Assembly (NCBI GenBank): GCA_965178125.1
Contig: OZ237768.1
Coordinates: 682,001 to 746,000 of the forward strand
Reading direction: 5' to 3'
DNA length: 64,000 bases
Origin: Bilabrum cf. latius
Taxonomy: Eukaryota
Of this stretch, positions 8,801-58,205 are shown in pieces (position 1 is the stretch's first letter; each line of letters opens with the position of its first letter). The notes under the pieces were generated by a model, which saw only the letters and a list, made by a program, of their open reading frames with translations, was not told where the DNA came from and searched no databases. The position numbers and the translations under genes were made by a program.

Positions 8801-11749
8801 AGAGAACACGCTGCCACCCTCGGTAAGCGCCAGACTGAACCCTCCCCCCGCCGCCACCATGGCAGGACCGCCCTCCCCCTTCGAGTACATCTCGCGCGTC
8901 CACACGAGAGAGGGCCCCCACTCGCTGCGGCCCTGCGGTCTACCCACGGCGGTGCCAGACCCGCACGCATAGATCCACCTCGTCTAGTCCTCGGAGCCCC
9001 CTTGCCTGCTACTCGACTCCACGCCGCCAGATGGCAGGTCCCCGCCGCTTCCCCCGTCCATTTCTTCATTAGCCCCGCCCTCCCCATCCCTGCTTGCCAG
9101 CTGCTTCTCCTTCTGACCCGGGTCAGGGCCCTTCACCAGAAACAGGGTGTGGCACCCGAGCACATCTGACCCACACGCTGCCATCTCCACCGCCCCCCGC
9201 CGCCCAAGGTCCTCCACGAGGGTTGGCCTCAGCCGCGTATCAGAGTCGCCCAGCCCCAGGGCACCGTCCGCCCCTGAGCCCCAGGTAAAAGCCATACCCT
9301 CCTCCGTCACGGCGGCACAGTGGTACCACGAGCAAGACACCTGGCGCACCCTCACGAGCCCCAGCTCCATCCCCAGCGGCAGCAGACAGGGCCAGGCCCG
9401 GTCCCGCCCATCCCCCAGCCCCAGCACCCCATGGTCACCCCTGCCCCACGCTATGGTGCGCGTGTGTGTGGGCAGCACGTCCCTCGGCAGGTGTCCCTCA
9501 TCCACGGGGGTCCAGGCCTTCACGGCGCGGGCTGCTCTCGCCTCTGCTAGCAGCTGCTGCTGCCCCTATCCCAGCCCATCAGCTCCAGCCCCCTGTTCCT
9601 TGGGCCCCTCTGTCCCCAGGGCACGCTGCGTTTCCGCCACTGGATCATGGGGCCAGCACCGAAACAGGGGCGCAATGCTTGGGGGCAGGCCCACCTTGCG
9701 CTCCTCGTGGCTTTCGGCGTTTGATGAGCTGCGGCTGGTCCCATCCTGGGTATCGCCTGCGGCCAGCCCCGACTGGGTCGCATGCAGCAGCAGCTCGCGC
9801 GCCACACACTACACCTACACTGAGGGTGCACCCGCGCCCACTAGCTCCATGCTGTCCGTGTCCGTGTCCTTGCCCTTGTCCTTGTCCTTGTCTCCCTTCG
9901 AGTCAGCTTCGTCACCAGGACCAGGTGCATGCGCACGCACGAAGAACCGCTGCCTAAGGGTGGCACGCACCATCGCCCACGGCTGCACCTGCTCATGGCT
10001 CAGGTCCTCCGGATGCTCCCCGTCCGCCTTGCTCTCCTCTTGACCCTCAGCCCCCGCCAAGGATTTGGGCCCTGCCCGCTGCCTCTCAACAGCCGCTGCA
10101 TCCTCCTGCCCCAGCACTGCGAACCAAAGCGGCGTGTCCGCAAGGACCTCGCTGCCCCACGCGCCCTCCCACACGCCCGCCCTGGCGCGCACGCACACAG
10201 GCTCCTCTGCACTTGACGATTCCCACGCCGCACGCGCCCGCGCGGTGGCACCTGCCCCGTGGCCCCGTGCCCTCACGGTGGCTTCGATCGGGAGGGGCCC
10301 CGCCCCGCACAGCACCGGGGAACAGACCCCTGGGACTGCAAGCAGCCGCTCGCACACTCGCTGCAGCACTGGCAGCACGCACCCTCGCTGGGCCATAGCA
10401 AGAATGACAGCTGCCGCGCGGGCAGATGCAGGCAGCACCCTCAGCCCGCCAGGTCCTGCCCCAGTCCCATCCCCAGCGCCACTCCTCGCCGAGCCCCCGC
10501 CCCTAAGCATTGGGTGCTCCCACGCGGGCTGCTCTCCACCCCTTGCCAGTCCTCTGTCGCTCTGCTCCAGCTCAGCAGCCAACCGACGCACCAGCAACCT
10601 GCTTCCCGGTGGAATCTCCACAGACCCTCCCTACTCCTGGCCCCCCTGTCCCTCTCCCTCTCCCGCTTGGGAAGCCTTGTGTCGCAGCTTATCACGCTCT
10701 GCCGTCTTCGACACATGCAGACGCTGCAGCACCCGCCGCCCGGAAACTGCCCACACGTCCCCACGGGCAACCATGCACGCATCAGCTGCAGCTGACCCGA
10801 GGCCTCGGTCTCCTGCCGCCCCCTTCTCACCCCACCCGGCTCCAATCACGCCGCAAGACTATTCCAACTCACGGCGGCCCACCTGCACAGAATCCCCTAC
10901 AGCTAGACCGGCAAGGCCTTGTCGTGCGTTCTCACTGCCCCCGCCGTCCACTGCATCCAAGGCAAGCGCACACTCGGCACCCACAAGCCCCTGGCCCCCC
11001 ACCCCCTTCTGGTCGCCGCCCAATGCGGCACCCGCTGCTGCAGCACCCCAAATCCCCTCCACCAGCGCTTTCTGCACGCCCGCTCTGCCCCTCGCGCCCG
11101 CGATGCTGGCCTCCAGAGCCCTGATACTCTCCCGGCTGGAGGCAAGGTCACGCTGGGCAGGCACGAGCGGCCCACCCGGCACCTCCTCCTCCTGCTCCTC
11201 CATGCCAGCCCCGCTGGATGGGGCATTTGGACGGGCAACACCGACTGTGCTGCCACCGTGGAGGATGGTAGCGAGAACGCGCTGTCTGGACGCGATTTCA
11301 AGCGCTGACCGCGGGCCTGGCGGGGGCAGGTACTCCGGCTCGAGATCGTAGTCAAGGCCGTCTGGGTCGTAGCCGTCCGGGTCGACAGACCCGTCCAGCG
11401 ACCCTTCAATTGACCCCTACCAGGAAAACGCCATGGCTGAGCCTGACTGAGCGGCCGATGCCATCTCCCGGCGGAGACGCTCCGTACCGTAATCTGGCGC
11501 TGCTGGTTTGGGCTTCTGGATGGTCTGGTCGTCCTCTTCGTCAGAAAACACCTCTGCGAATTCATCTTCATCCTGCTACCACTAGTTTCCAGCTTCACCA
11601 CTAGATATTGCAGTTTCTGCCTCGCTCATTCCGGCACCAGCTTCGTGCTCAGTGTCTGTTGTTGGAGCGGGCCCCTCATTCACCTGCCTTGCTCCATGGG
11701 CACTCTTCGCCTCAGCGAAATCAGTACTTGATGTACCACTAGCATTCAT
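5864..11749 (-). CDS. Large RCC1-repeat plus tandem BTB/POZ protein with C-terminal hydrophobic segments, about 1960 aa
   Basis: Nine ORF-track fragments share one frame and are joined by about 14 TAGs. RCC1 repeats (WGRGDHGVLGLG, VSCSWYHCAAVTEEGMAFTWGSG, VACGECHALCV). BTB motifs (FGAHVGILAVRS...LEFMYCG; DVIFNVGSAQVLCHRAVLSSCSEYF...LADKYQV). Ends TAA 5864-5866. Alternative start at 11806. Confidence 0.75.
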
Positions 11750-11910
11750 ATTAGATGCGAGGACTTGCACCAGGCACTATCGACCAATCTTTAAATGCGA
11801 ACGCATCAAGCAGGTTCTCGTGCGTTGCGTGGCGCCGCGCAATGCTCGAACGGAACCAATGGCAGTGCTCCGCGGGTGGATTTGATGGACCGTGCTCAAC
11901 GAGTTTCGGG

Positions 11911-14679
11911 ATGGCTTCTGTTTGCGTAGTTTAGCCTACGTCTGTGTCTGATATTCAACGTGCTTTGCGGATCGCGTGCTGCACAGGTACGAAGCTGCAC
12001 CTTGAGGGATCGCTGTCATTCGACGCCCACGTTCTTGGACGTAGTGACTTGAGTGACAGCTCGAAATATGTGATTTTGTCTGAAGCTGAGTATATCCAGA
12101 AGTATGATACAACAGCTGGCTGTTTGGGTGCCAATGGAGATGGACAGCTTGCAAGCATTTCCTTTGCTGGTAGTTCGAACGGGCGACACGCTGACGGCGC
12201 GGGCATCCACCACACGAACAGCGCCAGCAGCCGTAATGAATCAGCGCTTGTCGGTTCTGCAGATTCGCCTTGCCTCGTTCTCAGCATGGGTGGCATGGAC
12301 CGCGTCCTGGCCTTGGACACGGAGCGTAGACTGGTCAAGGTGCAGGCGGGCATCTCGCTCGAGGCGCTGAGGTCCTAGCTTTCTGCACATGGTTTATGTC
12401 TGCCAGCAATTGGTGTGACAGAGGGGTCTCATACGAGGGATGGTCTGCAGCTGTGGCAGGCGCTGGAGCGGGGCCACTGCGGTGTGGGGCCCCGGCAGCG
12501 GATGCTCGGGGGCAGGGTGCGGGAGGCGCAGATCGTCCGTGGGAATGGAGAAAGCGTCCTCGCTTCCAGTAAGCACTTGAGAGACGTGTTTCGAGCCAGT
12601 CTCGCGGGCAGCTGCGGGCCTCCTTTGGTGGTGCCAGCGGGGTACTTGCTCGAGTGCTCGCCCCAGTTCGCTCTGTGCCCCGTGGTGGGGCCATGTCCGC
12701 AGGAGACAGGCATCGGCCTCATACGCAGGGCCGCTGTAGAGTCTACCCAGCGTTCCACCTCAAGTAGGGATGGTTTCAATGTCCCCGAGCCCACTGCCCC
12801 GCTGCATCGTCAGGGCGGCATGCTTCAGGTGCTGTGGACCCCCGACTTGGTGGACGCAGCGGGCGAGGGCCGCACCTGGGCTCGTCTGCTGCTGGCCCGC
12901 ACCATCGGCGAGCTGGCAGGCTCACCTAAGACTGGACCAGCGGGGACTGAGTCGGCCTCTGTTGGTCCCTCCGGGTCCACCCGGAGGGGGGCTGGGGCGC
13001 TGCGGCCCCTGGGCCCGGGGAGCGTTGCAGCCAGCGAGGCCACGTCGCTGAGTCCAGGGACCGTGCGGACCTCCCCGGGGGGCAGATTTGTCGTGCCGCC
13101 GAGTCTGACAGGCAGAGCCAAGACACGGCCAGGGGCAGGAACAGGGACAGGGCAGGTCTCGAATGAACACGGGGGGGCGGCAAGCGATGGAGCATCGGAT
13201 GGCTCCGTGCCTGTCCGTGTCGCGCAGCAAGTCCCCGCGGGCAGTATTCCTGGCCAGGGACCGCTGCTAGAGGCGTGCTGCTGGGCCGCGCAAGATGCGG
13301 TGCATGCAGGTGTATCCGCTGCTTGCTGTGATGTGCCTGGCTGCGTGTCCAACGCGCACAGAGCAGCGGCCGGTCTTGCTCTCGTGCTGGGCGTCACTGA
13401 GGTTGTGCTGCTGCTCTACCTGCTGAGCAGCGCCGCAGGCTTTAGCTGGCTGGCTGGTCCTCTGGCGCAGCTGTGGGTGTGGCTGTCTCCTGTTGCGGCT
13501 GCAGAATCGGCGGGTAGGCGCGGGGTATGCAGCGCTTGGGGGCTGCCCCAGTGGTCGTCCTCCCAGGCCAGGGAACAACGGACCCGCGCCCGACTACTCG
13601 CGGCCCTGGCATCTCCTAGTCCCTAGCCAGACACCCCCAGCGCGGCCTCCTCCCTCCCCCCTGAGTGCTTCTAGACCGCTTCGCGGGCGCTGGGGCTGGA
13701 TCCATTGGCGATGCCAAGCCCCTCGCTTGCAGGCGGGGCCACTGGATGGCTGCTGGACGTTGGGAGGACTACGCACCTGGGCTGGGCGGTACCCCGTGCA
13801 GAAGCCGACCAGGCTCTGGAGGCGGTTCGGCGAGCCATGGCGCGTTGGGCGGCAGGCGGTGCCCTGTCTGGATCCAGCGCGCTGCCTGCCCCAGCGAGGA
13901 AGAGACAAGGCCGGTGGGGCGGGGTGTGGCCCGGGTCTGCAGGGTGGGCTGGCATCCAGAGGCAGGGGCAGAGGCAGGGGCAGGATTCTGGGGGCAGCAG
14001 CCACGACGGTGCTTCGGACGAGTTGGGCGGGGTGTCTCGTGGGAGCATCCCTGGTGCGTTCGGGCCCGGGGTAGCCATGCCCGCCCTGGGCGTCGATCTC
14101 GTGAAAGGGGACCACTGCTGGCTGTCTCCCGCGGCTGGGGCGGACTCCATGGTGCTGCGGCTGCGGTGGGTGCCGCTGCAGCCGTGGCTATTGGCCCTCC
14201 CCCTGGTGGGCGCCGTGCTTCGGGGGGCGTGCGCCAGGCATGCGTCTCTAGTGGCATCGCTCGGGGCCGCGCTGGTGAGCGACCAAGTGGCTGCCCGGCC
14301 TCTGGGCGCCGCTGCCCACCGGCTGATGGTCCCTCCGCTGCTGATGCGAAGACTCTTTCGCAGGTGGGCGGCTGTGTTGGACCTGCGAGATGACGAGTGC
14401 GACCCTCAGCACGCGCTCGTCAGCCGGGACTGGGACGGGTGGCTCGCTGCCTCGGAGGCGCCGGTTGCAACCGAGGACGGGGAGAGCTTGGGGATGGCAG
14501 GGGCGGCTGCCATTGGTGGCTTGCTGGAAAACTTGGGCGGCGGAGGCCCCGGGGTCCAGCAGGGTGAGGGGGGGGGCGGGCTTCCTAAGGCGGGGCCGAC
14601 TGCCAGCGGGGAGGACCACCAGGACTCCGGGCTCAGAGCACGACAAGTCACCCCTAGTGCGGGTAAGACAAGTGACTAA
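11911..14679 (+). CDS. FAD-binding oxidoreductase, divergent aldonolactone oxidase (GULO/ALO)-like
   Basis: MASVCVV[TAG]PTSVSDIQRALRIA...LSMGGMDRVLALDTERRLVKVQAGISLEALRS[TAG]LSAHGLCLP resembles the FAD_binding_4 N-terminus. C-terminal MRRLFRRWAAVLDLRDDECDPQHAL resembles the ALO tail. One frame, four TAGs, ends TAA. Confidence 0.65.
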
Positions 14680-14860
14680 TCGTTGATTGGATTGAGGCCT
14701 GATTGATACCCAGATGCTTGTGAATCCGCGCAGAATGATGGATTTTCTTGAAGTGCACGTTATGAAGATGAATGCAGGCACCGGGGGGCAAGTCTTTGAC
14801 GACGACCACGAATCCTGGGCTCGTTGGAGCCTTGTCTTTCAATCACCACCTCATTTTGGC

Positions 14861-17197
14861 ATGGACATTATCAAACGAAATTAGGCAGCTACCGCGGGGA
14901 GGAAAGGGTAGGCGTAGAACAGGGCGCCTGCGCCCATCCAGATCACAGCTGAGCAGCTGCTGCTCGAATCGCGATTAAGACAGAAAGAATTGCAGCCAGA
15001 ATCAAAGCCCCGGGTTATAATTAAAGATGCAGTCGAGTTAGCGGAGTACAGAACGAAGAAGAGAGCCGAATTCGAGCGCGGGCTAAGAGCCCAGATGTCG
15101 CGCAAGAAGATTTGGCTTGCCTATGCTAGATGGGAAGAGGAACAGAAAGACTTTGTACGGGCGAGGTCAGTTTTTGAACGAGCTTTGGATGTAGACTACC
15201 GGGAGACGCGAATGTGGACGGCGTACGCGGACATGGAAATCAGGGGGAAGTTTGTGAACCGAGCAAGGAACGTGTTGGACCGCGCCACAGCTTTGCTGCC
15301 CAGAGTTGACGCATTGTGGTACAAGTACGTGTTTTTGGAGGAAGCAGTAGGCAATTTTGAGAACTGCAGGGCGGTCTTTGAGCGCTGGATGCAGTGGGAA
15401 CCCGAGGAGAAGGCGTGGCTGTCGTTCGCGAACTTTGAGACCAGGCACGGCACAGCGGACCGCGCCAGGTCTGTCTACACCCGGTACGTTGCTTGTCATC
15501 CGTCCAGCGAATCGGTGCTCCGGTTTGCCAAGTGGGAGGAGCGGCAGGGGCAGGTGCCCCTCGCCCGGGCCGTGTTTGGGCGAGGGCTGGAAGACCTGGA
15601 GGAGCACGAGCTGGGTGCCGAGTTCTTTCTCGCATTTGCACGGCTTGAGGCGCGCGCTGGGGAGGTGGAGCGAGCGAGGGCCGTGTATCAGTTCGCCGAG
15701 GAGAGGCTTGCTGCTCTGGGGGCGGCAGGGGCTGCCCCCCTGCGCCGGGTGCAGCGGGAGCGGTCGCAGTTCGAGCGGCAGCAGGGTGATGCTGCGGGTG
15801 TGGAGGGCGCCGTGGTGAGCAAGCGGAGGCAGGAGTACGGCTCGATGGTGGGCAAGAACCCGCTGGACGTGGACGCGTGGATGGACTTGCTGCGGCTGGA
15901 GGAGGCGCACGGGGACGCGCAGTCGGTGCGGCGAACATACCTGCGGGCGGTCAAGCATGCCATGCCTCCCCGCAGGGAGAAGAGATTCTGGAGGAGATAC
16001 GTGTGGATCTGGCTGCGATGGGCGTCCTGGGAGGAAACAGACGAGAAGGGCGGGGGCAGGACTGCTGCTCGCAAGGTGCTGGGCTCTGCACTGCGCGCCA
16101 TCCCCCACTCTGTGTTCACCTTTGGCAAGCTGTGGAGGGCCGCGGCCATGCTGGAGGTCAGGGACAAGAAGTTAGAGGCCGCCCGACGGGTCTTTCAGAC
16201 GGCTCTTGGGAGGTGTCCCAAGGACAGCGTGTTCCGGGCAGCCATCGATCTCGAGTGGCAGCTGGGCGAGGTGGACCGCTGCAGGGCGCTGCACAGGGAC
16301 AGGCTGCTGTTTGCCCCTTTCGCATCGAGGGCCTGGCAGGAAGCGGCGGATCTGGAGGCCAAATGCGGGGAGGACGAGCGCGCGCGGGCGGTGCTGGAGC
16401 TGGCACTGGCCCAGCCCTCGCTAGACATGCCCGAGGCGGCCTGGCGGGCGGCCATCGACCTCGAGGTGCAGCTGGGTGAGCTGGGTAGGGCCAGGGCTCT
16501 CTACCGGAGGTTGCTGGACCGGTCAGCTCACGTCAAGGTGTGGCTAGCTGCCGCCCGCTTCGAGGCCAAAGTGGCGCAGCGGGCCTCGGATGCTCGCGCG
16601 GTGCTGCGGCGGGCGTACGACTTCTTCAAGGGGCAGGGGGAGCGGGGCCACGCGAGCAGGGCCGTGATTGCGGACCAGTGGGCCCGATTCGAGGCCGCGC
16701 AGGCCAGGCGCGCCGGCCTGGAGGACACACCCGCGCTGAGGGAGGCGCTGGCCAGGAGGCCTCAGGTGACCGTGCGCACGCGGGCCGTCCTCGGAGAGGA
16801 CGGGCTGCCCCGGGGAACAGAGGAGGTGCAGGAGTTCCACTTCGCCGACGATGTGCAGGCGGCGCCCGGGGCCCGATTGCTGGATAAGGCACGCGCGTGG
16901 AAAGCCAAGCTGGAGAAAGCCAAGCGCGCCAAGCTAGCAGCAGCGGGGGCGTCGGGCGAGGGCACAGCATCGCAGCCAGTTGCGGCACAGATTGCACAGG
17001 AGCAGGCTGTACCGCCGACTTCATCTTCATCATCGTCTTCTGCGGCATCTTCAGGCATGGCATCGGCGCAACCAGACGGTGCAGCGATGGAAGATGGCGA
17101 TGATGGGGACGACGAGCCGGCTGTAGGGAGCGAGTCGCAGAGACAGGAGCAGCCGCAGGTGGGAAGCAAGCGACCCAGGGGTGACACAGGGGATTGA
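14861..17197 (+). CDS. CRNKL1: Crooked neck-like pre-mRNA splicing factor (HAT repeats)
   Basis: Conserved NRAPAPIQITAEQLL, RARSVFERALDVDYR, LWYKYVFLEE and EKRFWRRYVWIW motifs. ATG 14861 needs TAGs at 14882, 14909 and 14915 to be read as sense. Ends TGA. Confidence 0.95.
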
Positions 17198-31592: not shown

Positions 31593-31637
31593 CACTTACA
31601 GCGACGTGTTGCAAAAAGAGCTTACTATTAAAACATA

Positions 31638-41609: not shown

Positions 41610-42616
41610 CGAGAGACACGAGCAGCGTCTGTAGAGAGACTTCAGCAGCTCGCCAGGACACTCAATCTGCACTTAGATGCCGTATCTCACCACAGAAGGC
41701 ATTCAATTCAACTCTGATTTCCGGTTCGAGACCGAACACTCCGATAGACTAGTCTGCGAGCGAACGAACGAAGCTTGAATGTCCACCGCAGTGGAGAGAG
41801 TCGTGGGCATCCTTTCGACTTCCGGTTTTTCGTCGTTCTGACCACCGCCGCGTGGCACCGCGGATGGAGAGATGAGGTGGATTCAATGGCGATTCGCTTC
41901 TGCAGACTTGCTTAGGAATGATTCCGCTGGTAACCTCAACACGGTGGGATGCGCGGGCATGCAATGGAAGTCAGCTGCTGACGTGGCTTTCCCAACTTGG
42001 AGGAGACTGGCTCAGTTCGAAGCGATGGTACGACGCGAGCTAGTTAAGCGGAGTTCGTACTGCTGTATGCATGTATCGGTTGTCTAATTGCCATGCGATG
42101 AATTTCTGCCTCTTGGGGCCAGGTCTGTAAGGTGCACGGCACTGGGTTCGCAGCAGCAGCCGGTCTCTACCAGCCAGAAGATAGAAGTAGTCGCCCGGAC
42201 AGAGAAGGCCATGCCATCCGTAGGGTCCATGCTCACCACTTCAAGCGATCTACCAGCACTTCTGTACAATAGTGATGCCAGAGCAAGCTGACCATGCCGG
42301 CCGCGGTTGGCGGTTCGGTGGCACCGTCAGTCAGATGCACAGACTTGAACAAGCTCACAAATAGAAGTCAATGCCCTCAATGTGATGATTTTGCCCGTTG
42401 GTGAGGCCATCCTAACGCTCTACAAATACCTGCAGTCGCCGAAGTCTGCATTTCTCACCCCATCCCACTCTAGCACGGCCACGTGATCGTCGCCTGTCCT
42501 AGCTGCAACCTGCATGTATCCTAAGCCGCAAGTGTCGCACCATGGACGCTGAACCCGAGTTTAGTAAATGTAGTCCACCCACAGTCTGATACTTGCTCGT
42601 CTAGGGAATACAATGT

Positions 42617-43026
42617 TTACTTCTTGCCCTTGCCTTTTCCTGCTGCTTTCTTGCCCTTCTTTGCCTCCTTGGGGTCTACGCCAGCCGCTTTCAACGCGGC
42701 TTTTCTGGCAATCTTCTCTTGCAACGCCTTCGCATCCCTGCAAGCAATAGATCTAGGACAAGAAAGACCGGCAACACGATGCATCAGTGAATCAAAACGC
42801 TGTAGCCATGCCTTGGCAATTCCAGCTCACGCCTCTTTTTTGGCCAGGCCACCTCCTGTGGACTTTACTTTCGTATGCTTGGCTGCGCGCTTCTGTGCGC
42901 GCGCTCGATCAGTTTCACCTGCAAAAAGGGAGAATGCCAAAACTATAGACAAACCAGCATCAAAGAGCGTACTAAACAGCAAGTAGCATCCTAGCATAGA
43001 ATCTCACGCTAGTTTCCTCTCGACAT
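42617..43026 (-). CDS. SERF: Small EDRK-rich factor (SERF/4F5 family)
   Basis: Not recovered by the ORF track. Three exons, with introns 43007-42919 and 42830-42738 (GTGAG...TGCAG). Product: MSRGN[TAG]RETDRARAQKRAAKHTKVKSTGGGLAKKEADAKALQEKIARKAALK...KGKGKK-TAA. Matches the SERF MxRGNQR...DA..(M/L)xEK pattern. Confidence 0.88.
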
Positions 43027-43637
43027 GGCTGTAACCAAGTGCGGGCTGTCCTTAAGGCCTGCTGAGTGTGTCGCCTCGTGGCAGAGCGCCAGCAGCGTCG
43101 AGCCGTTCAACAAGTTGCGACCAACTGCGACCTTCTCTCGCACTGCCAAGTCTAGGCCCACAAGGCCGCAGACGGCTGTAGGCACTCTCTTTTTGAAGTC
43201 ATCGCGACTTTGTAAGGTAATTGTACCATATATTCGGTGAGGACTCCCATGATCTGTCACAAAGCATCCCATTGAGTGCTCGCCTGTCACGAACGATAAC
43301 TCTCCAAAACGCTTCATTTTGATGTTCTTGCTGCCAGGCGTGTAGATCTTCATCTATAACAAATACTTTGGTTCTTTCAATTAAGTCTTTTCGTGTTGGA
43401 TGGCTGCACTTTGGCAGATTTTCCTCGCAATTGCCGGCCGTACCGCGTCTCAACATAGAAACGTTCGCCGTGCGTTGTCGCCGTAATCGGTTGACCATAA
43501 TTCGTATGACTCTCGAATTTGATTTTTCGTTTGACCGCCCACAGATTGGACTGGTGCTGTAGGATTAAAAGGCAAGTATTGGGAGCCTAAGTGCATTCCG
43601 CTAATCTGCCGATCGCTGGCAGAGGCAGGGGTGCGTC

Positions 43638-46600
43638 ATGGAATCCAAGAGCGCCCCAGCTCCTCCTAAACCATAGAGGCCTAAACGTGGCTCTATCTTA
43701 AAAGGAGGGAAGCAGAGGGGAAGTCGTAGATCGGTCTCAGATCAGGTTCACGGCACACCATCTGCTGGCCTAACTCACACGGAACTCTCTGGCGGTGGAC
43801 CGACACTTCCTTCCCTTCCTCAGTCTAGAATGACTGCAGACATCACTAAGCCTCGTCGGGCATCTAGACGTCGCTCTGGAAGCGTCAGTAGAGGCAACCA
43901 AGACGGTGAACCGGAGCGAGCCGGTGCCACTCTGCCGAGTACGAGTCAGGCCGCATCGCAGCGTGGCCTGACGAGAAAGGATGCCGTAAATGCTTTCTTA
44001 CATCCTGTAGGTGCCACGAGCAGCGGGGGGATGGGCGGGCGGCGGTCCTCGGCCCCGTCGATGGGAAGACCGAGCAAGGGAACCGGTGTGATGAGTGCGC
44101 TCGGCAAGACTCCCATGTTTGCCTCGGACGGTATCGAGGAGGATGACACCACGGAGATGGATGAGGAGGAGAAGAAACTGTTCGATAGGGCCAAGGCGTG
44201 GCGCCGCAGAAGGCGATCAGATGCGGATGCCATTGAGCTGTCCCGCGCGCTGAGTCGGCACGGCTTGTTCTCCCAGGTGGGCGCTCCCAACCTCGAGGCG
44301 CTCACCAGCAGGGAAGAGGAGGGTCATGGGGGTGCCATTGACGGGGGGGTGCATGGCAGGGAGCCCAGCAGCCCCTCCCGCAGCATGACCGACGACTTGG
44401 TTGCCTCCGTGCCGTCGAGCAGTACTGCGGCGGGCTCGGTGCAGGCCCCCCAGGGGGTCAGTCCCGTGAAAGGGGGGGCTTTGGCGCAGTGGAGTCGCCG
44501 AGCCCTGGGTGTATCAGGCGGCAACAAGGCCTCATTGATGCAGCAGAGCCACGAGTTGCTAGAGGGAGAAGAGGGCGACATCAAGGGGGCTGCTGGCAAG
44601 GGGGTCAAGTCGCCGCCACCGCCCCCACCAGGCAGACGAGCCAGAAAGCGCCGAGCCTCCGCTGGTTCCGTGGATGTCAGTAGCATGGGAATTACAGGAA
44701 ACAAGAAAGGGGGCATCAGTGGGGACGGATTCGGGGGCAGCAGGTCCCGTCGCCCCACTCTGCAGAGAGACAACTTGCAGGCGCTGGGTGCCTCGCTGGT
44801 CACGCTCAGGAGGAGGGCCAAGCGGATGCGCAGGGGCAGCAAGAGGAGGAGGAGAAGCAGCATCGCTGGCGGGAGGCGCAAGCACCCCCGCATCGCGGAC
44901 ATCGTGCTACAGGCCTGGGAGGCAAACAAAGTGGCATTCACAACGGCGGCCATCTGCTGCCCGTGCTACATGTGCACCAACCCGCCCATCCGAGTGTGCA
45001 TTAGGTCCATCATCGGGTCCCTGCCGTACATCATCTTCAACATCCTCATGGTGGTGTGGGTGCTGGTGGCTGGCGACCTGCTTGCCGCCTTCTTGCCAAA
45101 GAGCTGGGACCCCTATTTCGAGGCGGTGTTTGCGGTGGCTTTCTTGGCCTTCTTGGTGGACATCGTGCTGGCCTCTTCGCTCGATCGGAAAGTGGTGTAT
45201 GGGTTCTTCTGGTGGCTGGACGTGCTGGCCATGCTGTCGCTCATCTTCGAGCTGCCCACAGCCTCAAGGTGGATCTTCGGGGCTGACCTGTCGGCCATCG
45301 AGGGGCAAGACGCTTCTGTGGGGGCGTTCACCCAGGGGCTGAGGGGGGCCACCAGGGTAGGGCGGTTCGTGCGCATTTTCAGGCTATTCAAGCTGAGCAG
45401 GAAGGTGCAAAAACCGGACTGGATGCGAAAAATGGTGGGGGTGGACGACAGCGACGAGGAGGAGAGCGACTTCAGCGACAGCGACGAGTACTCGGACGAG
45501 GAGGAGGGCAGGTCCGAGGAGGAGATAGAGACAGTGGCCACCCTGGGGGAGCTGGCGACGGATGGGGAGGGGCTGAGGCTGAACCGGTTGCCCACTGGCG
45601 GCAGCGGCGAGGAGCATAAGGCGGGTGTGACGCGAGAGAACGTAAGCCGCCCTGTTGCTGTCACCCCTTTCTCGGGGCAGGGCAAGGGTATCTCGGGCGA
45701 GGTGTCGTCCGAGCTGCTGCCGGCAGCAGTGCAGAGGCAGGACAGCGGTTCTAATGATCCGCCTGCACTGTTCGCGCGGCAGGGTTCCAAGCGAGGGAAG
45801 GGCAAGAAGAGGCGGGGGGAGGACAAGTCTACCGAGCGAACCCGGCTGCTGGGCCCCCGCTCGGGGGACATCATGCTGCTGGACCCAGGGGACGGGCTGG
45901 GGTCGTTCGACCTGCTGGGGGCGGCGCTGTTGCCGACCACCTCGTCTCGCAGGAACATGCAGGGCAAGGTCAGGCGGGGCCGCAGCAGGCGGGACAAGCC
46001 CTCCGCAGTGGCCCCTTTCAGCGAGGGGGGAGACATGCAGGCCGGCTCGCTCAAGCAGGCCCTGGCCCAGCCCAGCGGAGAGACGGATCTCGCCGCGCTG
46101 GACGACCTCTCGGACCTCCGAGATCTGGACCAGCTGCTGCACGTGGTCAAGACCGGGTCGCCCTAGGTCCCCGACAGGGAGCTGGGGCTGGCGGCTGGCT
46201 CCAGCGCGGACGCAGCGAATGCTCGTGGGAGGGCTACCGACAAGTATGGCACTGAAGCAGAGAGCCAAGCCGGCGTGGGTGACCCCGGGAAAGTAGTGGT
46301 CATTGCAGACACACACGAGTCCGGAGGTGCTGGCCCGCAGCAGCAGAAGCAGCAGGAGTAGTAGTAGGATCCAGTGACAGACGCATCCAGTGCGCCGCTC
46401 GCCTCCCTGGCATCCGGCACGCCTCCTCGCCGGGTGCGGCCCGTGGTGAGGGCCGTGTCTGTCCAGTCGAGCAGTGCTTCAGAGTCCTCTGGGGGCACTG
46501 GTCGGTCATCCGCAGCGAGCAGTGCGGGCGGAGCAGATGCCGAGGGGAAGGTGGCAGCCGCTGATGAATGTGAGGATGATGGACAAGATGCACCGGCGGC

Positions 46601-48713
46601 TGGCAGTCGCCCCCAGCGCCGCATGAGTCACTTGAGGGTACAGACCCAGCCGCCTAGCGACCCCAAGTCCCAGGTGGACAGCCGTGCCTCCGAGGGCATG
46701 GAGATGGACCGGCCGAAGGGACTGACAACTGCGCAGCACGCTTGGGAGCACAGCGCGGGCAGGATCGTCACCCCGATGTTCTCCGAGCGGGCTGAGTCGG
46801 GGGGCTAGATCGCCCTCCAGACCCCGCAGGCCAACGCTATCCCCGAGGTGGTGGAGGAGAGGGACAGCGAGTCACCGCAGGCCAGGACCCCATTCGCGGG
46901 TGCCGGGCCCTCCGAGGCAGAAGGCAACCGCCGGTGGAGCGTCACCTCGCAGGAAGCCGACGCGATCGCCAGGCGGGCAGTGGCGCAGCTGCATGGGTCC
47001 GATGCTGATGCGCTGCCGGATGGGCCCAGCAACAAGGCCGCATTTGCCGGTGGGGGTGGGGGCGGCAAGCGCGTGTTCCGGAAGAGCTTCCGCACGCGCG
47101 TGCGAGACAAGGTGCGAGCAGTGGGCCAGCAGCGCATGGACGGGGAAGATGAGAAGGGCAAGGGGTCGCCGCGGAAGAAGGCCGCAGGTGCGAGGCTGCT
47201 CCGGGCGGACGACTCGGGCGACGAGGACAACAGCATGTCGCAGGGCAAGTCGGCCGTGGGCAGGCGCATCTCTGATCTGATTCGCCTCAAGGTGATGGTG
47301 GGCGTGATGGTGATTTTAGTGGTGGTCGGACTGCTCAACGTGCAGGAACCTTCCCTCGAAAGGCAGCGCGTGCTCGAGTCGCTCTGTGCCGCCCGCGGGG
47401 CAGTGGGCAGCGAGCAGGACGCTCTGCTGGTGGAGGAAGCCGCGGCCCGGTTCATGACAGCCGGCGAGCAAGAGATCCAAGACCGCGAGTTCGTCCCGCT
47501 CGACGTGGAGCAGGCGGCGGCAACTGCAGCCGCAGCGTCCTCGTCCACCTGCGGGCAGTCGTGCGCAGATGCAGTGGGCACAGCAGTGGCCGGGCTGGTC
47601 CGCAGCAACTCGACTGCCGTGGCGGGCGCGCTGCTGGCCAGCACCGGGTTGAGCGCAAGGACCGTGGGAGGCACTGGAGAGGCCGCCACACCCACGAGCC
47701 TGCCCGCAGACGCGCTGTCCCCGCTCAGCATGGGCTACCTGGTGCAGCTGCAGATGGTGCTGCTGGCGCACCCCGAGATCGTGGCTCTGCGGGTGGACGA
47801 GAGCACTGTGCTGCAGAGGAACGGCAGGAGGTCCGAGCTGCGGGACACCGAGATCGTGGAGGTGTACGCAGATGCGACCACTCCGGCGGTGGACCCGGCG
47901 GTTAGCTCCGCTTGGCTGCGGCAGTATCAGCAGAGCGGCGGGTCTGTCCCGTCCTGGGGGGTGGGGCCCTCGCTGGCACTGGCCAGGCGCATCTCCGCGT
48001 GGGCCGAGTTCGACGATTCGAGGCGGGTGCGCACTGCGAGCATCTGGCAGTTCGTGCAGACGAACGCCATCATCCTGCTGCTGGCCGTGCAGGCCGCCCT
48101 GCTGACGAGGGACGTGCACCGGCTGCTGGTGCGGCCCATCGAGAGGCTGGCGGAGCACCTTCGGCCGGTGCTGTCGGACGCCATCCGGTTCTTGAGCGAG
48201 GACGGGAACCGCTGGAACGTGGAGATCGGCAAGCAGGACGGGGAGGAGCTGAGCACCAAGCTGATGCTAGCTGCCATCGAGAGCCTGAGGGCGCAGATGA
48301 AGGACGACGCCAAGAAGAGGTTCGACAGGAAGTCTCTGTTCCACGGGCTGAGGAGGCAGTCGGCCAAGGTGGGCGGCATGAAGACCATGTTCGAGGGTCT
48401 GCACCGCGCCTCGGTGGCCTCTGCCACGACCATGAGCAAGGCTTCGAGGAACAAAGGGCTCACCAGCACCAACAGCAAGGCGGATAGCGAGGCCATGGCG
48501 GCTGGGGGGATCTAGAGTCCCTCCGGGAAGTCCATGCGCCGCACCCGCAGCGGGAAGTCCGTCAAGCGCGTGCGGTCAGGCAAGCCAGGCTCCAGGCGGA
48601 AGTCGCAGCAGGAGGGCTCTCCCAATGCTGCCGGCAGCCCGAGCAAGGGTGCTTCGCGCCCGCCCAGGCACGAGAGGACCACAACTGATACATCTACAGT
48701 GGATGGGACCTAA
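43638..48713 (+). CDS. Voltage-sensor/ion-channel-like membrane protein resembling the membrane domain of protozoan channel-adenylyl cyclases, no recognisable catalytic domain, about 1690 aa
   Basis: One frame with seven TAGs, ending TAA 48711-48713. S1-S3-like helices with FFWWLDVLAMLSLI, S4-like RGATRVGRFVRIFRLFKL, then SAVGRRISDLIRLKVMVGVMVIL and FDDSRR...LLTRDVHRLLVRPIERL. Confidence 0.7.
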
Positions 48714-50532: not shown

Positions 50533-52709
50533 TCATTTTGACACCCGCTGTGCAATGGCCCTGAGATCGACCTTCCGACCTGCATCCCTCGCTGCCCTGA
50601 GTTCGTCCGCCGATGGAAACGGGTCCTCACCCGTCTCTGTGCGACGACGAATGAGCTCGGACGCCGCTGCTGCATTTGGATCATCTTGCAGCGTTGCTAC
50701 CGCGATCACCTTACCATCCAGCACGTAGAAGGCGGAGAGCTTGGCGTCCTTGCCTTGGGAGACGTCGCCGACCACGATTTGCTCGTCCCACTTGCGGGCG
50801 TGCCCGGCGTACCTCACATTCTTCCCGAGCTGCCCGGTCCAGAAGAATGGGACCTTGTCGTAAACGGCAGGCTTGCCTGCCATGGCTTGCCCCGCCACCC
50901 TCCCCTGGTCGAGAGCCACGTCCCAGTGCTCGATGCGAAGGTGCGAGTGGGTTTCGTCTCCCTCCAGGGCGTGGGCGTATGGGAAGCGAGCCAGGTCCCC
51001 CGCCACGTACAGTCCCTCCGTCGCCTTCAGGGAGCCGTCCACCTTGACTCCTCCGCCCTCCTCCCTGCTGCCCAGCTGCACCCCGGCCTTGGAGCACGCC
51101 TCGTTATCCAAGTAGGGCGCCACGGGGACGATGCCAGCGCCAACCAGCACCAGATCTGCTTCTATCACGGTCTCATCGTCCCCCACCTTGACCCCCTTGA
51201 CCTTCTCACCTGCCTCGTCCTTCACGAAACCCTTGAGCATGCCCCTCGACTTGCCCAGCACGAATCGCACCCCATGTGCCTCGTGGAGCAGACGCAGGCA
51301 GGACCCGATGTCGGAGCCGAGCACCCGCTGGAAGGCCTCGTCAGACATATCGCACACGGTGATGCTGCCCACGCGCCGCTGCTCGGATCCCACTGGCTCC
51401 CCCAGCCCGTAGCTCTTGGCGATGTAGGCAGCCGACTCCATGCCTATGAACGAGGCACCGATCACGGCGACGCGGGCCGGCTTGCCCGCCTTGGCCGCGG
51501 CCTCGATGGCCTGGTCCACGGCCTGTGCATCGGCGGGCGTCCTCAGGGTGAAGACTCCCTCCAGCTCGCTCTCCTTGCCCAGCAGGCGCATGGCGGGGCC
51601 CGAGGTGGCGCACAGGGCCTTGTCGTACGACAGCGAGGACCCGTCCTTGGTCTGGATCTTGCGGGCCGTGGGGTCCACTGCCACCACCTCCCCAGCTGCT
51701 CCGCTCCTGAGAGAGACCCCCAGGCGCTTGTAGAAGGACGCCGGCCTGAGCCCCAGCCCCGAGTAGGCGTCCTCGATGGTCTCTGCCTCCTTGCCCTCCC
51801 CGCGGGCAGAGGCCATGTTCTTGCTGAGTGCCGTGCGGTCGATGAACGGTACCACCCCACTCCCGTCCGGCCCCCACGGATCCTCCCCCAGGTCGTCCTT
51901 GGTCAGCACAGTGATCTGGCCCTTGAACCCAGACTGGCGCAGGGACTCCACCGCGGTGGAGCCGGCGGTACCTCCGCCCATGATCACGAAGTGGCGGTCA
52001 TCGGCCGCACTGGGGGCATCCATGGAGGGCTCCCTGTACCGTGCCTCTCCCACCGCCTCGTCTGCCACCAGGTGCACGAAGATGCCCCCCTCCCTCTCCG
52101 TGGCCTCCACGGGCACAAGACAGTCCAGGCCCGGCCCGTCCTCGATGTCTCCGGTACGGACGTCAAAGGCAGCCCCATGAAACGGGCAAACCAGACGATT
52201 TCCACTTAGAACAGCATTCGTGAGTGGTAGCTTGTAGTGTGAGCAAGCGTTCGGCACGGCGTGCAATGATCCATCAGCCAGCCTCGCGAGTAGGATAGAA
52301 GTGGCCTTCTCGCCCTCCTTTGCGGCTGATACCTCAACTGCCTTCGTCTATCCAACCAGAAGCGACGATGAGTCGCACACGCGGTGCGCTGTGGCCTGCG
52401 GGCATACAGTTAAAGCACCTGTTCAGAGCAATACGTGTCTTTTGTTCATCGGATCCACCAAACACTCGCCCCTGATTGCAGCTTGACGCGTTTCGAGATG
52501 CCAATAATCACGAAGTTTGACAAATGGGCAAGGATTCATGTAAACATTGTCACGTAGTCCATCTAGGTGCGATTTGGGCTGCGTGGCGGAAGCGTCACGC
52601 GCCTCTTCTGCGGCGTTCTACACGTAGACTACTCAGACTACGATCTCACACCAACTCGTTTGGATCCAGCTGAAAGGTCCACTTTAGGCGCTCCCGCAAT
52701 TGCAGCCAT
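50533..52709 (-). CDS. Rieske 2Fe-2S plus FAD-dependent oxidoreductase (AIFM3/AIF-like)
   Basis: Rieske CSHY...CPFHGAAF, GGGTAG, VIGASFIGME, YVAGDLARFP, RIEHWDVA, VPFFWTGQ. N-terminal LLVG[TAG]TKAVEV. The first exon 52709-52650 and intron 52649-52396 are predicted and less certain. Ends TGA. Confidence 0.85.
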
Positions 52710-52925: not shown

Positions 52926-55034
52926 TCAACCGTCCACCCAAATTGCTCCTGCGCTGGCATCTACTGGCGATTCTGGCCTAGGGCGTTGGCTGCCACGCGG
53001 GTGCACTTTCGCGCTTTTCGCACGTGCATCTACGGGGATTCCCAATCGAGCGTCCACCACCCCCCTCCAGTCCTGCAATTCTTGCCCTGCAGCCCCAGCC
53101 AACTGTGATGGTGGTGATGCTGCAGTGGCGGCTGACCGAGACTGCGATGCATCACCCCCGTCCTACTTCCGAGAGGCACTTCCCGGTGCCCCAGAGCGGT
53201 AGTGGTTCCGTGTTAGCTCACGTACCACCCCCACAGCTCCCGGTGCCCCAGCACCCACCATCAGCCGCCGCACCTCTCTTGACCCCCCTCCCCCTGTCTG
53301 TCCCTTGCCAAGCGCCTCCAGCACAGCCCGCACCCCCACCTCACCGCGGAGCGTAATCCGTCCTGCTGTGCCCGCAGAGCCCCGCACCGCCCCAGCAGGC
53401 CCAGCCCCGAGAGCATCGGCCCAGCAGCCCAGGGACCACTCCCGCGCGATGTGCTCGCCTCCCCCCTCCGCACCTATGTGCGCCCCGTCCGACCCCAGCC
53501 CATCTGCATGCCCCGCGACGGCCTCATAGTCACCCTCTGCCCCCAGCAGGCTCTCCATGGCCATCTGCACGCCTGCCAGCGCGTCCCCCCACAGATCTTC
53601 GTAGTGGTGCAGGTGCGCCCGAACTCGCAGCAACTGCCCAGCCTGTCTTGCCAGCGCCCCCAAACAAGGACCCATCCCGGCGTTGTTCCACAGAGCCACC
53701 GTCGATGGGCCCCCACTAGCCCCTGGCACAGAGCACAGCGCAGTCTTGACGGCCTTGCCCCCGCTGCAGTACCACGGCATGCGCACGTGGCCGGCCGCGC
53801 GCCAGTCCTGCACGCATCTTTGCAGATCCCCAGAGGATACGCTGAACGATGGCACGGGTACGGACCGCCGTGACCTGCTGCCAGCAGCCAGCCCCCGGCC
53901 TCCCGCCGCTGCCGCTGCCTCTGGCGCGCTCCTGGCCAGCAGGGCGAGGGCGAGGGTCCCACGGGCTCGGGGGTCCGTCTCAATCCCGTGCTGGGAGGGG
54001 TGCGCCGCCGCCCGCAACATCTCAGCGGCCGCACGAGGCATCGACCTGTCCCTGACCCGGGGCCGGGCGCCGGCCCCGGCCCCGGCCCCGGCCCCAGCTG
54101 CCTACACCTACTTGCCCCGCTGCCCGACGTCCCCCACGAACGGACTGACCGAGCAGGACGCGAAGGGGAGAGAGGGTAGTGGGACCAGGTTGGTCGGTAA
54201 CTCGCCCAGGTCCAGGTGCAGGGGGCCTCCAAACCGTGAGCCAGCCGCGATGTCCACCAGGGCCTGGGCTGCCACCCGGTTGGCGGTCTCGAAGGCAGTC
54301 AGAGCTTTTGACTTGCCGGCAGGGCGGGGCTCCTCCGCTGCAGAGAGGTCCGTGCCGCCCGCAATCGTGTTCATGGCAGCATTTGTGAACGGAATCACGA
54401 GTGACGCGTGCTGCTGCAGCTGCTCCAAGGCCAGCACGGCATTGTATGGGGCGGTGACCACATCGCTGTCATGTGCGCAGCTCGCCCGACTCGGTGGAGC
54501 AAAACTGTCCGGGGCTACAACAGCAGCTATCCTGTCTATATCGGAAAATGCGTCGGCGCACTGCGCCAGCAAGCGAGTTCCCAGTCCAGAACCAGTCCCG
54601 CCGCTCAGCGAATGCAAGAAAAGCAGGTTGCCCGGACTGTCACACGACTCCAGGGATCGCCTGACTTGGCCTTCTAAACTTGAGCCATGAACAGACCAGT
54701 GCTCGAAGTGGCCATGAGCCCAGTTGTTCCCGGATCCGGGCGAGTCCTTAACCAAAGAGCAATGCTAAAACAAAGGAGCGTGCTTGCCTTTCAAAAGTTG
54801 GGCAAGCACTCCTTCCTCCATGTCTACCAAAACAGCCCTTGCGCGTAAGTGCCGGAGAGATAGTCCGCCTGCATTTGTATCAGGTGCGTGCGACTCGATC
54901 TCGAAGAAGGGAGAGAGGTGCTACAAGCTTGCTGATGTTGCGGCGCTTCGCTCAGCCAAGAGCTCGTTCCAAAACTGCCAGCCAATTTGATTGCCGCACT
55001 GCCCTACCTGCACGACAACTGTTTCTCTAGGCAT
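52926..55034 (-). CDS. TUBE1: Epsilon-tubulin, divergent, with long C-terminal extension
   Basis: [34 protein letters not shown] (epsilon-type), [41 protein letters not shown]. Five in-frame TAGs (54921, 54765, 54108, 54102, 53163). Ends TGA. Confidence 0.82.
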
Positions 55035-55350
55035 TACATCAATATTCCGTTAACAGCGCTGACATGGTTTTGACCCGCACGTAGCTGCTAACGAATGATG
55101 ATGCCGGCCCGGCGAGACTGTGCAGAAGTAGGTTCCGCCGCGGCTGTGTGTTGGCGTGAACACGTGGGAAACTGGCGGGCAGCAGTAAAGGTAACTGCAG
55201 GGCATTTTGGAGCAATACTTGCGACACGTGGGCGTTGCACCGGTGGGTTCTGCCTTCGGACGGTGCGAACTGCTCCAAATTCCCGAGTCCGTCCACAAAG
55301 GCTGTAAGCCTTCCCGCTGCACAACGCAGACCCACAGCCCCTTCAGCCCC

Positions 55351-58056
55351 TCAGCCGCACCCGGAACATAGGCCTGGCACGCACCCGGCGCAAGTCAGCG
55401 GGTGCAGCCCGCTGGCCTTCGCCACGGCCACTCCGATGGCTGTGGTGCCCTCTCCCAGCACAAACCCGGTTGCAACCAGCAGGCCCTGGATGCCCTCCAG
55501 CCCGCCGGTCGGGCTGTGTCCTGCAGACTCAGGACAGCCACAGGGGGCAGCACAAGGGGCCAGCCATCCCCTCCTCCACGCCTCCATGGCCAGTGCGCCC
55601 AGCACGCGCGGCAGCACAAACGAGGGCGATATGTACATGCCCACGGCCACTGCCATGAGGGACGGACGCACAGACACCAGCCACAGGGGACATCGGCACC
55701 GTCCAGGGGCACCCAACGAGCTAGTCGCGCCTGCTGCTCCTCCCAGCTCCACCTCGGCCGGCATCAGGGGGCTGGAGGCATCCTCGGCTGTGCCTCGCCT
55801 GCCTCGCCTACCTCGCCCCTCCACACCAGCAGCTGCTAGGCCATGTGCCCCTGACTCCTCCCCCGAGTCATCCAATTCGTCTCCTGGGGTCACCTGCGCC
55901 CTATGCTCAGCACTTGCCCTGCCAATCCCGCTGTCGCCCGAATCAGCAGCCTCGGTGTCGCATGCCAGCATCTGCACGAGCGCGATCACCATGGACAGCC
56001 CAGCGCCGATGCCCGCAAACAGAGGCGCATTGGCGGGCAGCGGCTCTCCTCCTGCCAGTCGAGCCATGTCCAACCACACCTAGGCAGTTGGGACCTGCAG
56101 GGTGGGGCCCCCCAGCGTATAGGCCGCCGTAAACAGCTGGTAAGCCCCCACAGTGGCGACGACTCCCACTAGAGAGCCCACTAGCTGGGCCCACAGCTGG
56201 GAAATGGGGAATGCGCCCAGCAGGTAGCCTGTCTTGAGGTCCTGCATGAGGTCCCCGGCCTGCTGTGCGCCTGCCTCGGCCACAGCCCCCGCCAGCAGAT
56301 TGGACACGATCCGGCCCGGGGCCATGCACGCGAATGCAGCCTGCGCGATCTTACCCACCCCCGAGACCGGGTTGAGGTCAGTTTCTCCCAGGGCTCGCAC
56401 TGCGATGACTGCCACCACGACGCACAGCAGCAGGGCCACAAGCGGCTCCCAGACAGGCACCTTGAAGACGAGAGGGACCACCAGGGCGCACAGGGCAGAG
56501 GACAGGAGCAGCCCAGGGACCCACAGGCACATGGGGATGTCGCCTCGAGATGATGATGACGTGCTGCCCAGCGTGCCACCCGCTGCGCTGGCAGTTTCTT
56601 GTTTGGCCCTGCAGCACACTATGCCATACCGCAGCACGGTGCTTCCCAGCGTCACCACGCTCTCGCCCAGCATAATGCCCAGAGAAACCCACACCACCCA
56701 TCCCTTGGCCCCATCCGTCCAGCTTGATACAGGTCCCGGCGCCCACCCCATCCGCATGGCCAATGGAGCCAGGATGCCCCATGCTAGGAGGGCGCCCACA
56801 CCCATGCTGAGGGCAGGCCGCAGACCCATTATCATGCCCTGCCCCACGTAGGAGAGCGAAGGGGACACGTACCAGCCCAGCTGAGTGGCCTAAAGCGGAG
56901 CCCCCAGCCAGTGCAGCACGGGCATTGCCCCTGCCACTGGGACAAGTGCGCCCAGCACAGTCACCCCGGACGCAGCGGCGCAGGCCTTGCACATGGGGCC
57001 CAGTGGGGGAACTGCTGATTCGCCTGATTCGCGAGAGTGCGAGCCCTGCGGATCTTGCCGAGGGCCTGCATCTATCTCCATCTGGGCCTGATGATGGGGG
57101 TCATTGGGTGCTCTAGCAGCAGCAATAGTCTTTCCCGGGGCTGCTGCAGGAAGCACGTGCGCATCCGGTGCACCGGAGGGCCGAGCGTCCGCTCCCGAGT
57201 CCGGTATGGCAGGAACTAGGCAGGAATGCGTCCCCTCCGCCCGTGCTAGTGCCCCTGTCTCCCCGTGTAGTGCCCCGATTACAACAGCCGTGGCTGTGCC
57301 GGACGGAAATTTCAGTTTCTGCACCTCAATGGCATCCCTGCGAAGAGGGACTGCCAAGAATACCCCAAAGAAGGCCAGGGCAGCGCACCATCCAAGCTGC
57401 TGGGCCCATGATAGAGTCACGCCCTCCTCCGATGAACTATCCTATTCATAATGCACATGCGCGGCCATTGCCACAGTCGCATTCAATCGGCCTGGCCCAT
57501 CCACGGCACAAGTTGACTGCAATGCTACTACCCCCGCACGAGTGTCTTCAATTTCTAGTTCATTGTGCCCCAGCAGAGTCAGAGCTGGAATAATCCCTAC
57601 AAACCCTCCGGCAAGCGGCATTGTGCCGGCTGCGACCGCAGTTGTTTGCAGGGCAACGTTCTCCAAAGGCGTGAACCCACTCGCCCAAGACATAGCAGCG
57701 ACGCAGCAACACTTTGCAAACACGCTCTACTTTGGTGATTTCGCGTGGGGCCTTGATTTGTCTCTTGAGCTCGCCAATAACGACGAGTCCTCTTCATCGA
57801 CCTACTACTCTGTTTTATTACTTTCTGGTCGTGCCGAAATGGTGTGTGACTCGTTTGAACTTGGAGAGACTTTGCAAATTGCATCAACAGAACGAAGCAC
57901 TCCGAAACCGAGAACAGCTGCTTGAACAGAGGCCATGGTGATCCAACCAGTCTGCAGCCCAAAATACATGTTGCTACAACACAAAATTACCCCAATTATC
58001 GATCCAACAAATAATGCCCGACATGATGCCTGTGGTTCGCTATCTGCAGACATCAT
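55351..58056 (-). CDS. OPT-family (YSL-like) oligopeptide/metal-chelate transporter
   Basis: SNMYFGLQTGWITM, FTPLENVALQT, LKFPSGTATA, SPSLSYVGQGMIMG, GETDLNPVSGVGK, AGDLMQDLKTG, VPTA[TAG]VWLDMARL. Five ORF fragments share one frame and are joined by six TAGs. Ends TGA. Confidence 0.92.
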
Positions 58057-58205
58057 GCTGCACAGTAAAACTGGAAAATCGTTGCTCTTGGCAGGCTCCG
58101 AGTTCGTTCTCTCTCTCGCAGAAAATTGAATGTGCTCCACATTCTAAACATCCAAACACACAGCTTGGTTCGCAACATTTGCTTACCTGATGCAACGATA
58201 AAGTG

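Follow-up and report, generated by a model that had tools for sequence, protein, structure and literature searches.

An in-frame TAG in a SERF-like gene and a probable UAG-glutamine nuclear code in a likely bicosoecid relative

The window, a 64,000-nucleotide stretch of DNA (G000:C34:682001-746000), belongs to a 48.6-Mb assembly of 111 contigs with a GC content of about 60%. Its minus strand carries a small SERF-like gene of three exons, and the window also holds long frames with in-frame TAG codons (Table 1). The first-pass annotation, made from the letters alone, had drawn this gene with two introns, a TAG at the glutamine of the SERF motif and a TAA at its end. Reading of the sequence recovered both codons in the one gene, and both introns were skipped at their exact positions, as joints of 93 and 89 bases, in contigs of X5 and X6, which come from two studies. 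No such joint was present in X1, where the SERF stretch lies unspliced in one piece. X1 may be the source of this DNA. From the skipped introns we infer that X5 and X6 are RNA; no run is recorded as such. X8 contributed a small share and gave almost no cover. A spliced X5 contig extends 68 bases past the joint, to about 43071. Within the initial 330 bases of the spliced sequence there are two ATGs, whose products under the standard code would have 5 and 14 residues. The same annotation had allowed that different splicing might remove the TAG. From the ATG of exon 1 to its TAG we found neither a GT nor a GC donor, so alternative splicing cannot take the TAG out. The SERF gene and its plus-strand neighbour stand head to head, with starts within about 120 bases of each other (window 43071-43236); a GT-AG intron of 308 nt lies in the 5' part of this neighbour.

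Table 1. Positions in the window of the SERF-like gene and of frames carrying in-frame TAG codons
Feature	Position	Strand	Remarks
SERF-like exon 1, coding part (codons 1-6 and one base)	43008..43026	-	ATG at 43026
Codon 6, TAG in frame, at the Gln position of the N-terminal SERF motif	43009..43011	-	Unchanged in spliced X5 and X6 contigs
SERF-like intron 1, 89 nt, GT-AG	42919..43007	-	Skipped in X5 and X6 contigs
SERF-like exon 2	42831..42918	-	Pfam SERF-like_N match, positions 8-33
SERF-like intron 2, 93 nt, GT-AG	42738..42830	-	Skipped in X5 and X6 contigs
SERF-like exon 3, coding part: Lys/Ala/Gly-rich tail, TAA stop at 42619-42617	42617..42737	-	
SERF-like 3' untranslated part, from the same spliced contigs, continuing beyond 42000	42000..42616	-	
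Divergent neighbour, 1702 codons, 7 TAG, TAA end	43605..48713	+	All 7 TAG unchanged in spliced X5/X6 contigs
RCC1/BTB frame, 17 TAG in 2138 codons from stop to stop, TAA end	5864..12280	-	
HAT-repeat (CRNKL1-like) frame, 3 TAG, TGA end	14696..17197	+	
Rieske/pyridine-nucleotide oxidoreductase frame, 1 TAG, TGA end	50533..52422	-	
Tubulin-family frame, 5 TAG (2 inside the Pfam match), TGA end	52926..55049	-	
OPT transporter frame, 7 TAG, TGA end	55351..58182	-	

The product of the SERF-like gene would have 75 residues, among them 19 Lys and 6 Arg, and thus be of a size with yeast SERF (68 residues) and human SERF1a (62 residues). Like these small basic proteins, it begins with the motif M-x-R-G-N-Q-R; five of its six fixed residues have plain codons, and Gln6 has TAG, in contrast to yeast and human SERF. 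The match to the 4F5 family profile that the first-pass annotation had called for was obtained in part. Exon 2 alone aligned in register with Pfam SERF-like_N (PF04419) over positions 8-33 of 38, at 16 bits (E 0.023) and so below the cut-off of 22.3. Since the first full codon of exon 2 encodes product residue 8, the TAG falls at profile position 6, where yeast SERF and human SERF1a have Gln (10.1101/2024.06.12.598678; PMC11364024). The C-terminal half of the product is the Lys/Ala/Gly-rich tail and has no Pfam match. Searches with exon 2 alone found no homologue in the PDB (0 matches at E 10) or among the 50% representatives (0), and an Atlas search with the same exon gave no usable match. 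Membership in the SERF family is therefore suggested by motif, register and size, the HMM score being that of exon 2.

TAG behaves as a sense codon across the contig. In 264 kb of C34, frames of at least 1000 codons number 3 under the standard code, 23 when TAG is read and 3 when TAA is read. Among 37 long C34 frames (at least 300 codons), picked by codon score with TAG read through, 31 contained TAG, and the counts were 191 TAG, 323 CAA and 1269 CAG. The share of TAG among Gln codons drops with rising GC3 (rho -0.74, n 46). The single TAG of the oxidoreductase frame (52350) lies inside its Rieske match and is unchanged in a spliced X6 contig. Two further observations concern the window itself. 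A long tandem array (31568-34000) in the minus-strand frame 31638-36275 consists of repeated IQ-like units, in which CAG was used for all 17 motif glutamines counted. Within the minus-strand OPT transporter frame, ARAGORN placed a tRNA-Ser(GCT) on the plus strand (56980-57070), probably a false call.

The dynein heavy chains provide the larger sample. Nineteen loci form single frames of 3710-6333 codons with 436 TAG in 96,729 codons, and every one of these frames (n=19) holds at least 4 TAG. Inside 28 dynein AAA_6 matches, all 20 stops are TAG, with 0 TAA and 0 TGA, so the presence of all three stops in frame, a feature of Condylostoma and Blastocrithidia, was not found within these matches. 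In-frame TAG codons also occur in eRF1 and GluRS, and in PRP8 (4 TAG in 2791 codons), which is a poor test of the code. The claim that UAG stands for Gln while UAA stops translation, made by the first-pass annotation for the SERF gene, extends to the genome; it is carried by the dynein data, as the single SERF site could not have done.

To assign a residue to UAG we compared TAG sites with conserved alignment columns, masking TAG as X in all comparisons. Against a mixed dynein reference (80 metagenome loci, 15 of 120 proteins and 18 paralogues), TAG stood at Gln columns in 9/9 cases at 90% conservation, 9/11 at 80% and 12/16 at 70%; the corresponding values for CAG were 71/77, 88/103 and 112/145. 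TAG and CAR did not differ in their occupancy of Gln columns (Fisher p 1.0, 0.65 and 0.75 at 90, 80 and 70%). Averaged over 213 TAG sites, the column profile correlated with those of CAA and CAG at r 0.96 and with those of Glu codons at 0.80. When the genome's own dynein paralogues served as reference, TAG corresponded to Gln in 12 of 12 cases. Against the 120 dynein-2 homologues alone, in 90% columns, the rates were only 13/23 for TAG, 93/190 for CAG and 21/33 for CAA, because most queries belong to other dynein subfamilies. The TAG site sets of these comparisons overlap, and the comparisons are not independent of one another.

The ends of the genes were examined in the same material. Of the 19 dynein frames, 14 extend to the conserved C-terminal motif, 11 of them ending in TGA and 3 in TAA; among the others, one ends in TGA elsewhere and four run past the fetched DNA. 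The eRF1 gene ends in TAA, with 0 of 111 homologues extending beyond this point in the alignment, and PRP8 ends in TGA. In the 37 long C34 frames we counted 27 TGA and 10 TAA ends. No gene ending in TAG was found among the dyneins, eRF1, PRP8, SERF and these 37 frames. UGA is a stop too, and a commoner one than UAA.

A candidate decoder is present. We found one copy of a tRNA with anticodon CUA (G000:C23:907607-907679; L011:1488-1562, minus strand), the one tRNA among 5 matches of a pattern search whose counts are a floor. At 69.8 bits it has the top nuclear score among 48 Rfam matches (63 scored of 780 candidates). No UUA tRNA occurs among the nuclear tRNAs called, a set that intron-bearing or atypical genes would escape; the sole pattern match was a mitochondrial tRNA-Lys. 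An arm-by-arm comparison over 22 rows (one per isotype and acceptor stem; Phe and Cys were not parsed) gave a divided picture. The D stem is that of tRNA-Gln(UUG) at 8/8 positions, the T loop at 7/7 (as also for Ser), and the discriminator G73 is shared too. The acceptor stem instead matches tRNA-Tyr(GUA) at 12/14 bases and 6/7 pairs (next best 6/14), as does the anticodon stem at 8/10 (next best 6). With tRNA-Gln(CUG), the expected parent, the agreement is 6/14 in the acceptor stem and 6/10 in the anticodon stem. A long variable arm is lacking. Identity elements for Gln in bacteria include G73, G2-C71, G10, U35 and A37, the eukaryotic Gln row of the same source being empty, and eukaryotic Tyr elements are A73, C1-G72, G34 and U35 (PMC9976931). 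The CUA tRNA has all five Gln elements, by rules borrowed from bacteria; it keeps the C1-G72 pair of Tyr and lacks A73 and G34. From these elements, mixed between Gln and Tyr, and from the codon data, we infer that the CUA tRNA is charged with Gln.

Several other explanations of the TAG codons were weighed. Under a standard code the SERF TAG would have to be a sequencing error or the lesion of a pseudogene, which is scarcely conceivable. The sub-threshold score of exon 2 would suit such a gene, but X1, X5 and X6 all carry this TAG, with no other letter listed at codon 6 in their contigs, and in-frame TAG is found in eRF1, PRP8, GluRS and 19 of 19 dyneins as well. A PF04419 profile search of the genome, moreover, gave one weak match elsewhere (E 6), the SERF-like gene itself being missed because of its introns. 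An error or lesion was refuted by the spliced contigs, the uniform TAG of the AAA_6 stops and the dynein TAG codons. A standard code in which RNA editing (U-to-C or A-to-I) removes the stops is highly improbable. TAG was unchanged at 9 of 9 sites in three genes in spliced contigs, which argues against editing at the consensus level; only assembled contigs were compared at these sites, which hide minority variants and to that extent favour the editing model. Editing would also have to act at hundreds of sites, and there is a CUA tRNA dedicated to this codon. The run contigs showed no strain differences at TAG sites. It is, finally, unlikely that UAG is mostly Gln and yet terminates some genes, as in Condylostoma or Blastocrithidia. 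Such dual use would accord with the absence of TAG from the last 20 codons of the 37 C34 frames (0/740, where about 3.4 would be expected at 191 per 41,937, in frames defined with TAG read through), given that depletion near gene ends marks dual-use codons (PMC11687900). Genes ending in TAG would, however, produce an excess of TAG before the next TAA or TGA, and only 2 of the 1110 codons in the last 30 positions of these frames are TAG. Two complete dyneins carry TAG at 16 and 20 codons before their ends, and the complete dyneins (14 of 14), eRF1, PRP8 and SERF all stop at TGA or TAA.

The remaining alternative is that UAG is ambiguous or specifies another residue: Leu, Glu or Tyr, the last through the Tyr-like acceptor stem. 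We consider it very unlikely. The acceptor stem with its C1-G72 pair speaks for it, as do single TAG sites: one of the two in eRF1 lies at a Leu column (110/111 homologues), the other being at a Gln column (109/111); one dynein TAG lies at a Tyr column (68/92); and one GluRS TAG lies at Trp or Tyr in 5 alignments. Against it, the TAG profile correlates negatively with those of Tyr codons (-0.40, -0.43), Leu codons (-0.33 to -0.38) and Trp, and TAG is not significantly enriched in aromatic columns (1/16 TAG vs 1/162 CAR, Fisher p 0.17). The CUA tRNA, moreover, has G73 in place of A73 and is without a long variable arm.

The comparisons of contigs, columns and frames show UAG unedited in the spliced transcripts and placed at Gln columns, with genes ending in UGA or UAA. 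The nuclear code is thus very probably one in which UAG serves as a third Gln codon and UAA and UGA are stops, and under which the SERF-like gene is ordinary. In the mechanism we propose, the CUA tRNA would most probably be charged with Gln and read UAG but not UAA. Its origin is a more tentative matter. Derivation from tRNA-Tyr, or a mosaic origin, is a possibility we hold somewhat below even; likeness by chance or descent from an older tRNA-Gln is also possible. On the Tyr route, a G34C change would have created an amber suppressor, which would then have gained Gln identity through A73G, U2-A71 to G2-C71, and a Gln-type D arm. If this were true, UAG would have meant Tyr, or had a mixed meaning, before it came to mean Gln. 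There is a laboratory parallel in the E. coli tyrosine amber suppressors of the 1970s literature, which insert Gln after acceptor-stem or discriminator mutations. These share with the CUA tRNA the anticodon, a Tyr-like acceptor stem and a G discriminator; they are bacterial laboratory mutants, whereas the gene here is a natural eukaryotic one whose D stem and T loop are those of tRNA-Gln(UUG). The joint proposition, that this is the first non-standard nuclear code in stramenopiles and that its decoder came from, or recombined with, tRNA-Tyr and not in one step from tRNA-Gln(CUG), remains doubtful.

The eRF1 gene (contig C35) has four exons and encodes 438 residues, with two in-frame TAG codons. 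Relative to 111 homologues, and in human numbering (yeast +3), the changes A27T, G29A, N30D, I35V, S60V, L69Q (if TAG is Gln), E107Q and K130H occur in 0/111; L126M occurs in 15/111 and N129S in 10/111. GTS is intact. Residues unique at conserved positions number 8 of 90 in the N domain and 3 of 133 in the M and C domains. I35V or changes at L126 may be linked to ciliate eRF1s; for I35V the link was not confirmed, as this change had no mention in the literature searched. Published work offers several points of contact: L69A raises readthrough, of UAG particularly (PMC5304391); positions 55, 125 and 129 matter for third-position G (PMC3632111); and yeast N126S was enriched in an amber-suppression screen (PMC12440015). 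Near the GTS loop, TASNIKS, YxCxxxF and position 69, the N-domain changes are likely to make a third-position G harder to recognize while sparing UAA and UGA. The GlnRS (C33; L216:1012-3267) has Phe-Gly in its anticodon-binding region where human, 5bnz and 5zdk have Lys-Arg. We take the Arg of this pair to contact G36, and plants presumably have Gly at the same position, so the GlnRS change may be a precondition of the code and not an adaptation to it.

The lineage was approached through dynein-2, whose best named match is that of Cafeteria roenbergensis at 39% identity. The eRF1 and NAD5 matches included no usable named close relative, and cluster look-ups returned neither taxon names for 9 homologues nor an exact record for 2 proteins of the window. 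In FastTree analyses dynein-2 grouped with the Cafeteria clade at a support of 99, whether or not the long branch P0008 was included; with more ciliate-type rows, which it did not join, the support was 98. A quick IQ-TREE placed it, on a very long branch, on the Cafeteria side of a branch with support 97. On the evidence of this one gene, the organism probably stands near Bicosoecida within the stramenopiles, related to but distinct from Cafeteria, and the code change would have arisen independently in this bicosoecid-like lineage. The Cafeteria clade itself appears to use the standard code, as 3947 aligned codons of L066, a metagenome locus of this clade, contain no in-frame stop; C. roenbergensis/burkhardae thus share the side of the tree and differ in code, being only 39% identical in dynein-2. 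The mitochondrial genome (C111) has 38,401 bases, 24% GC, TGA in frame, a tRNA-Trp(UCA) among 10 tRNAs called, and all long genes on one strand. This corresponds to code 4, which the bicosoecid Cafileria marina also uses (PMC6723347) and which is not exclusive to bicosoecids. Environmental NAD5 sequences are 100, 89 and 77% identical to the NAD5 of C111, indicating that related species exist. A metagenome scan revealed no close relative among the matches listed, the best segments being 30-63% identical (at least 80 loci).

Some observations concern other organisms. The organism's 18S is represented by an array copy of 1700 nt on C12. A second 18S lies on a 17.9-kb contig (G000:C95:6099-7900; L002) and matches the C12 copy at 1411 of 1811 columns; we take it to be dinoflagellate-like, and it probably derives from a co-cultured organism or contamination. 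Two metagenome dynein-2 fragments from other organisms (L085:99-1757 and L126:1-1485), 80% identical to each other, group with ciliate-type sequences of the UAR=Gln kind. In both, TAA and TAG line up with Gln columns and TGA with invariant Arg ones; 4 of 5 TGA in each fall where 119-120 of 120 homologues have Arg. The pattern suggests a nuclear code in which all three stops are read and UGA is Arg. The dynein loci L079 and L132, again from other organisms, have TAG in frame 5 and 4 times and lack TAA in their aligned parts; these may be further UAG-only codes, though the sites are too few for a decision.

UAA and UAG are nearly always reassigned together, the nuclear exceptions being a rhizarian, a fornicate, a green alga and some ciliates (PMC11687900). 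According to the same source, UAG-only changes give Leu in the rhizarian, Gln in Iotanema, Ser in Scotinosphaera and Leu in three ciliate MAGs, and the ciliates Protocruzia tuzeti, Hartmannula and Trochilia read UAG as Gln. The fornicate Iotanema spirale shows the same split between UAG and UAA and likewise an altered eRF1 N domain (PMC5304391). It belongs to another supergroup and is known from a transcriptome, its tRNA-Gln(CUA) was predicted in that 2017 paper, which had no means to look for it, and its eRF1 has T32G, whereas here GTS is intact and G29, N30, I35, S60, L69 and K130 differ instead (PMC5304391). Hartmannula sinica, Trochilia petrani and Protocruzia tuzeti likewise use table 15, with UAA and UGA as stops, and the first two show no sign of dual use (PMC11687900). 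Recoded phyllopharyngeans have UAA at 86.9-98.3% of gene ends and no suppressor tRNA was detected in H. sinica or T. petrani (PMC11687900), whereas in the present genome, with its GC content of about 60%, UGA is the commoner stop (27/37) and a CUA tRNA is present. We found no report of a cognate tRNA for Iotanema, Hartmannula or Trochilia in the literature searched. Table 6, with UAR as Gln (ciliates, ulvophytes, hexamitids, oxymonads and Amoeboaphelidium; PMC11687900), shares the meaning of UAG; in contrast to it, UAA is unread here, with no TAA in the 28 AAA_6 matches and no gain in long frames.

In the literature searched, mostly non-subscription and without supplements, there was no report of a non-standard nuclear code in a stramenopile or bicosoecid, and term searches of PMC11412368 and PMC11008856 brought up no statement of stramenopile nuclear recoding. 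The present code is apparently an independent new case of a known rare code (NCBI table 15 type) and the first in stramenopiles. The contiguous assembly makes tRNA, eRF1 and GlnRS all readable for a UAG-only code. Its eRF1 is a natural set of substitutions bearing on how a release factor can lose UAG and still recognize UAA and UGA, and these substitutions also bear on amber suppression in eukaryotic cells. For the lineage itself, standard-code gene calling will fragment most genes, as TAG is present in 31 of the 37 long frames.
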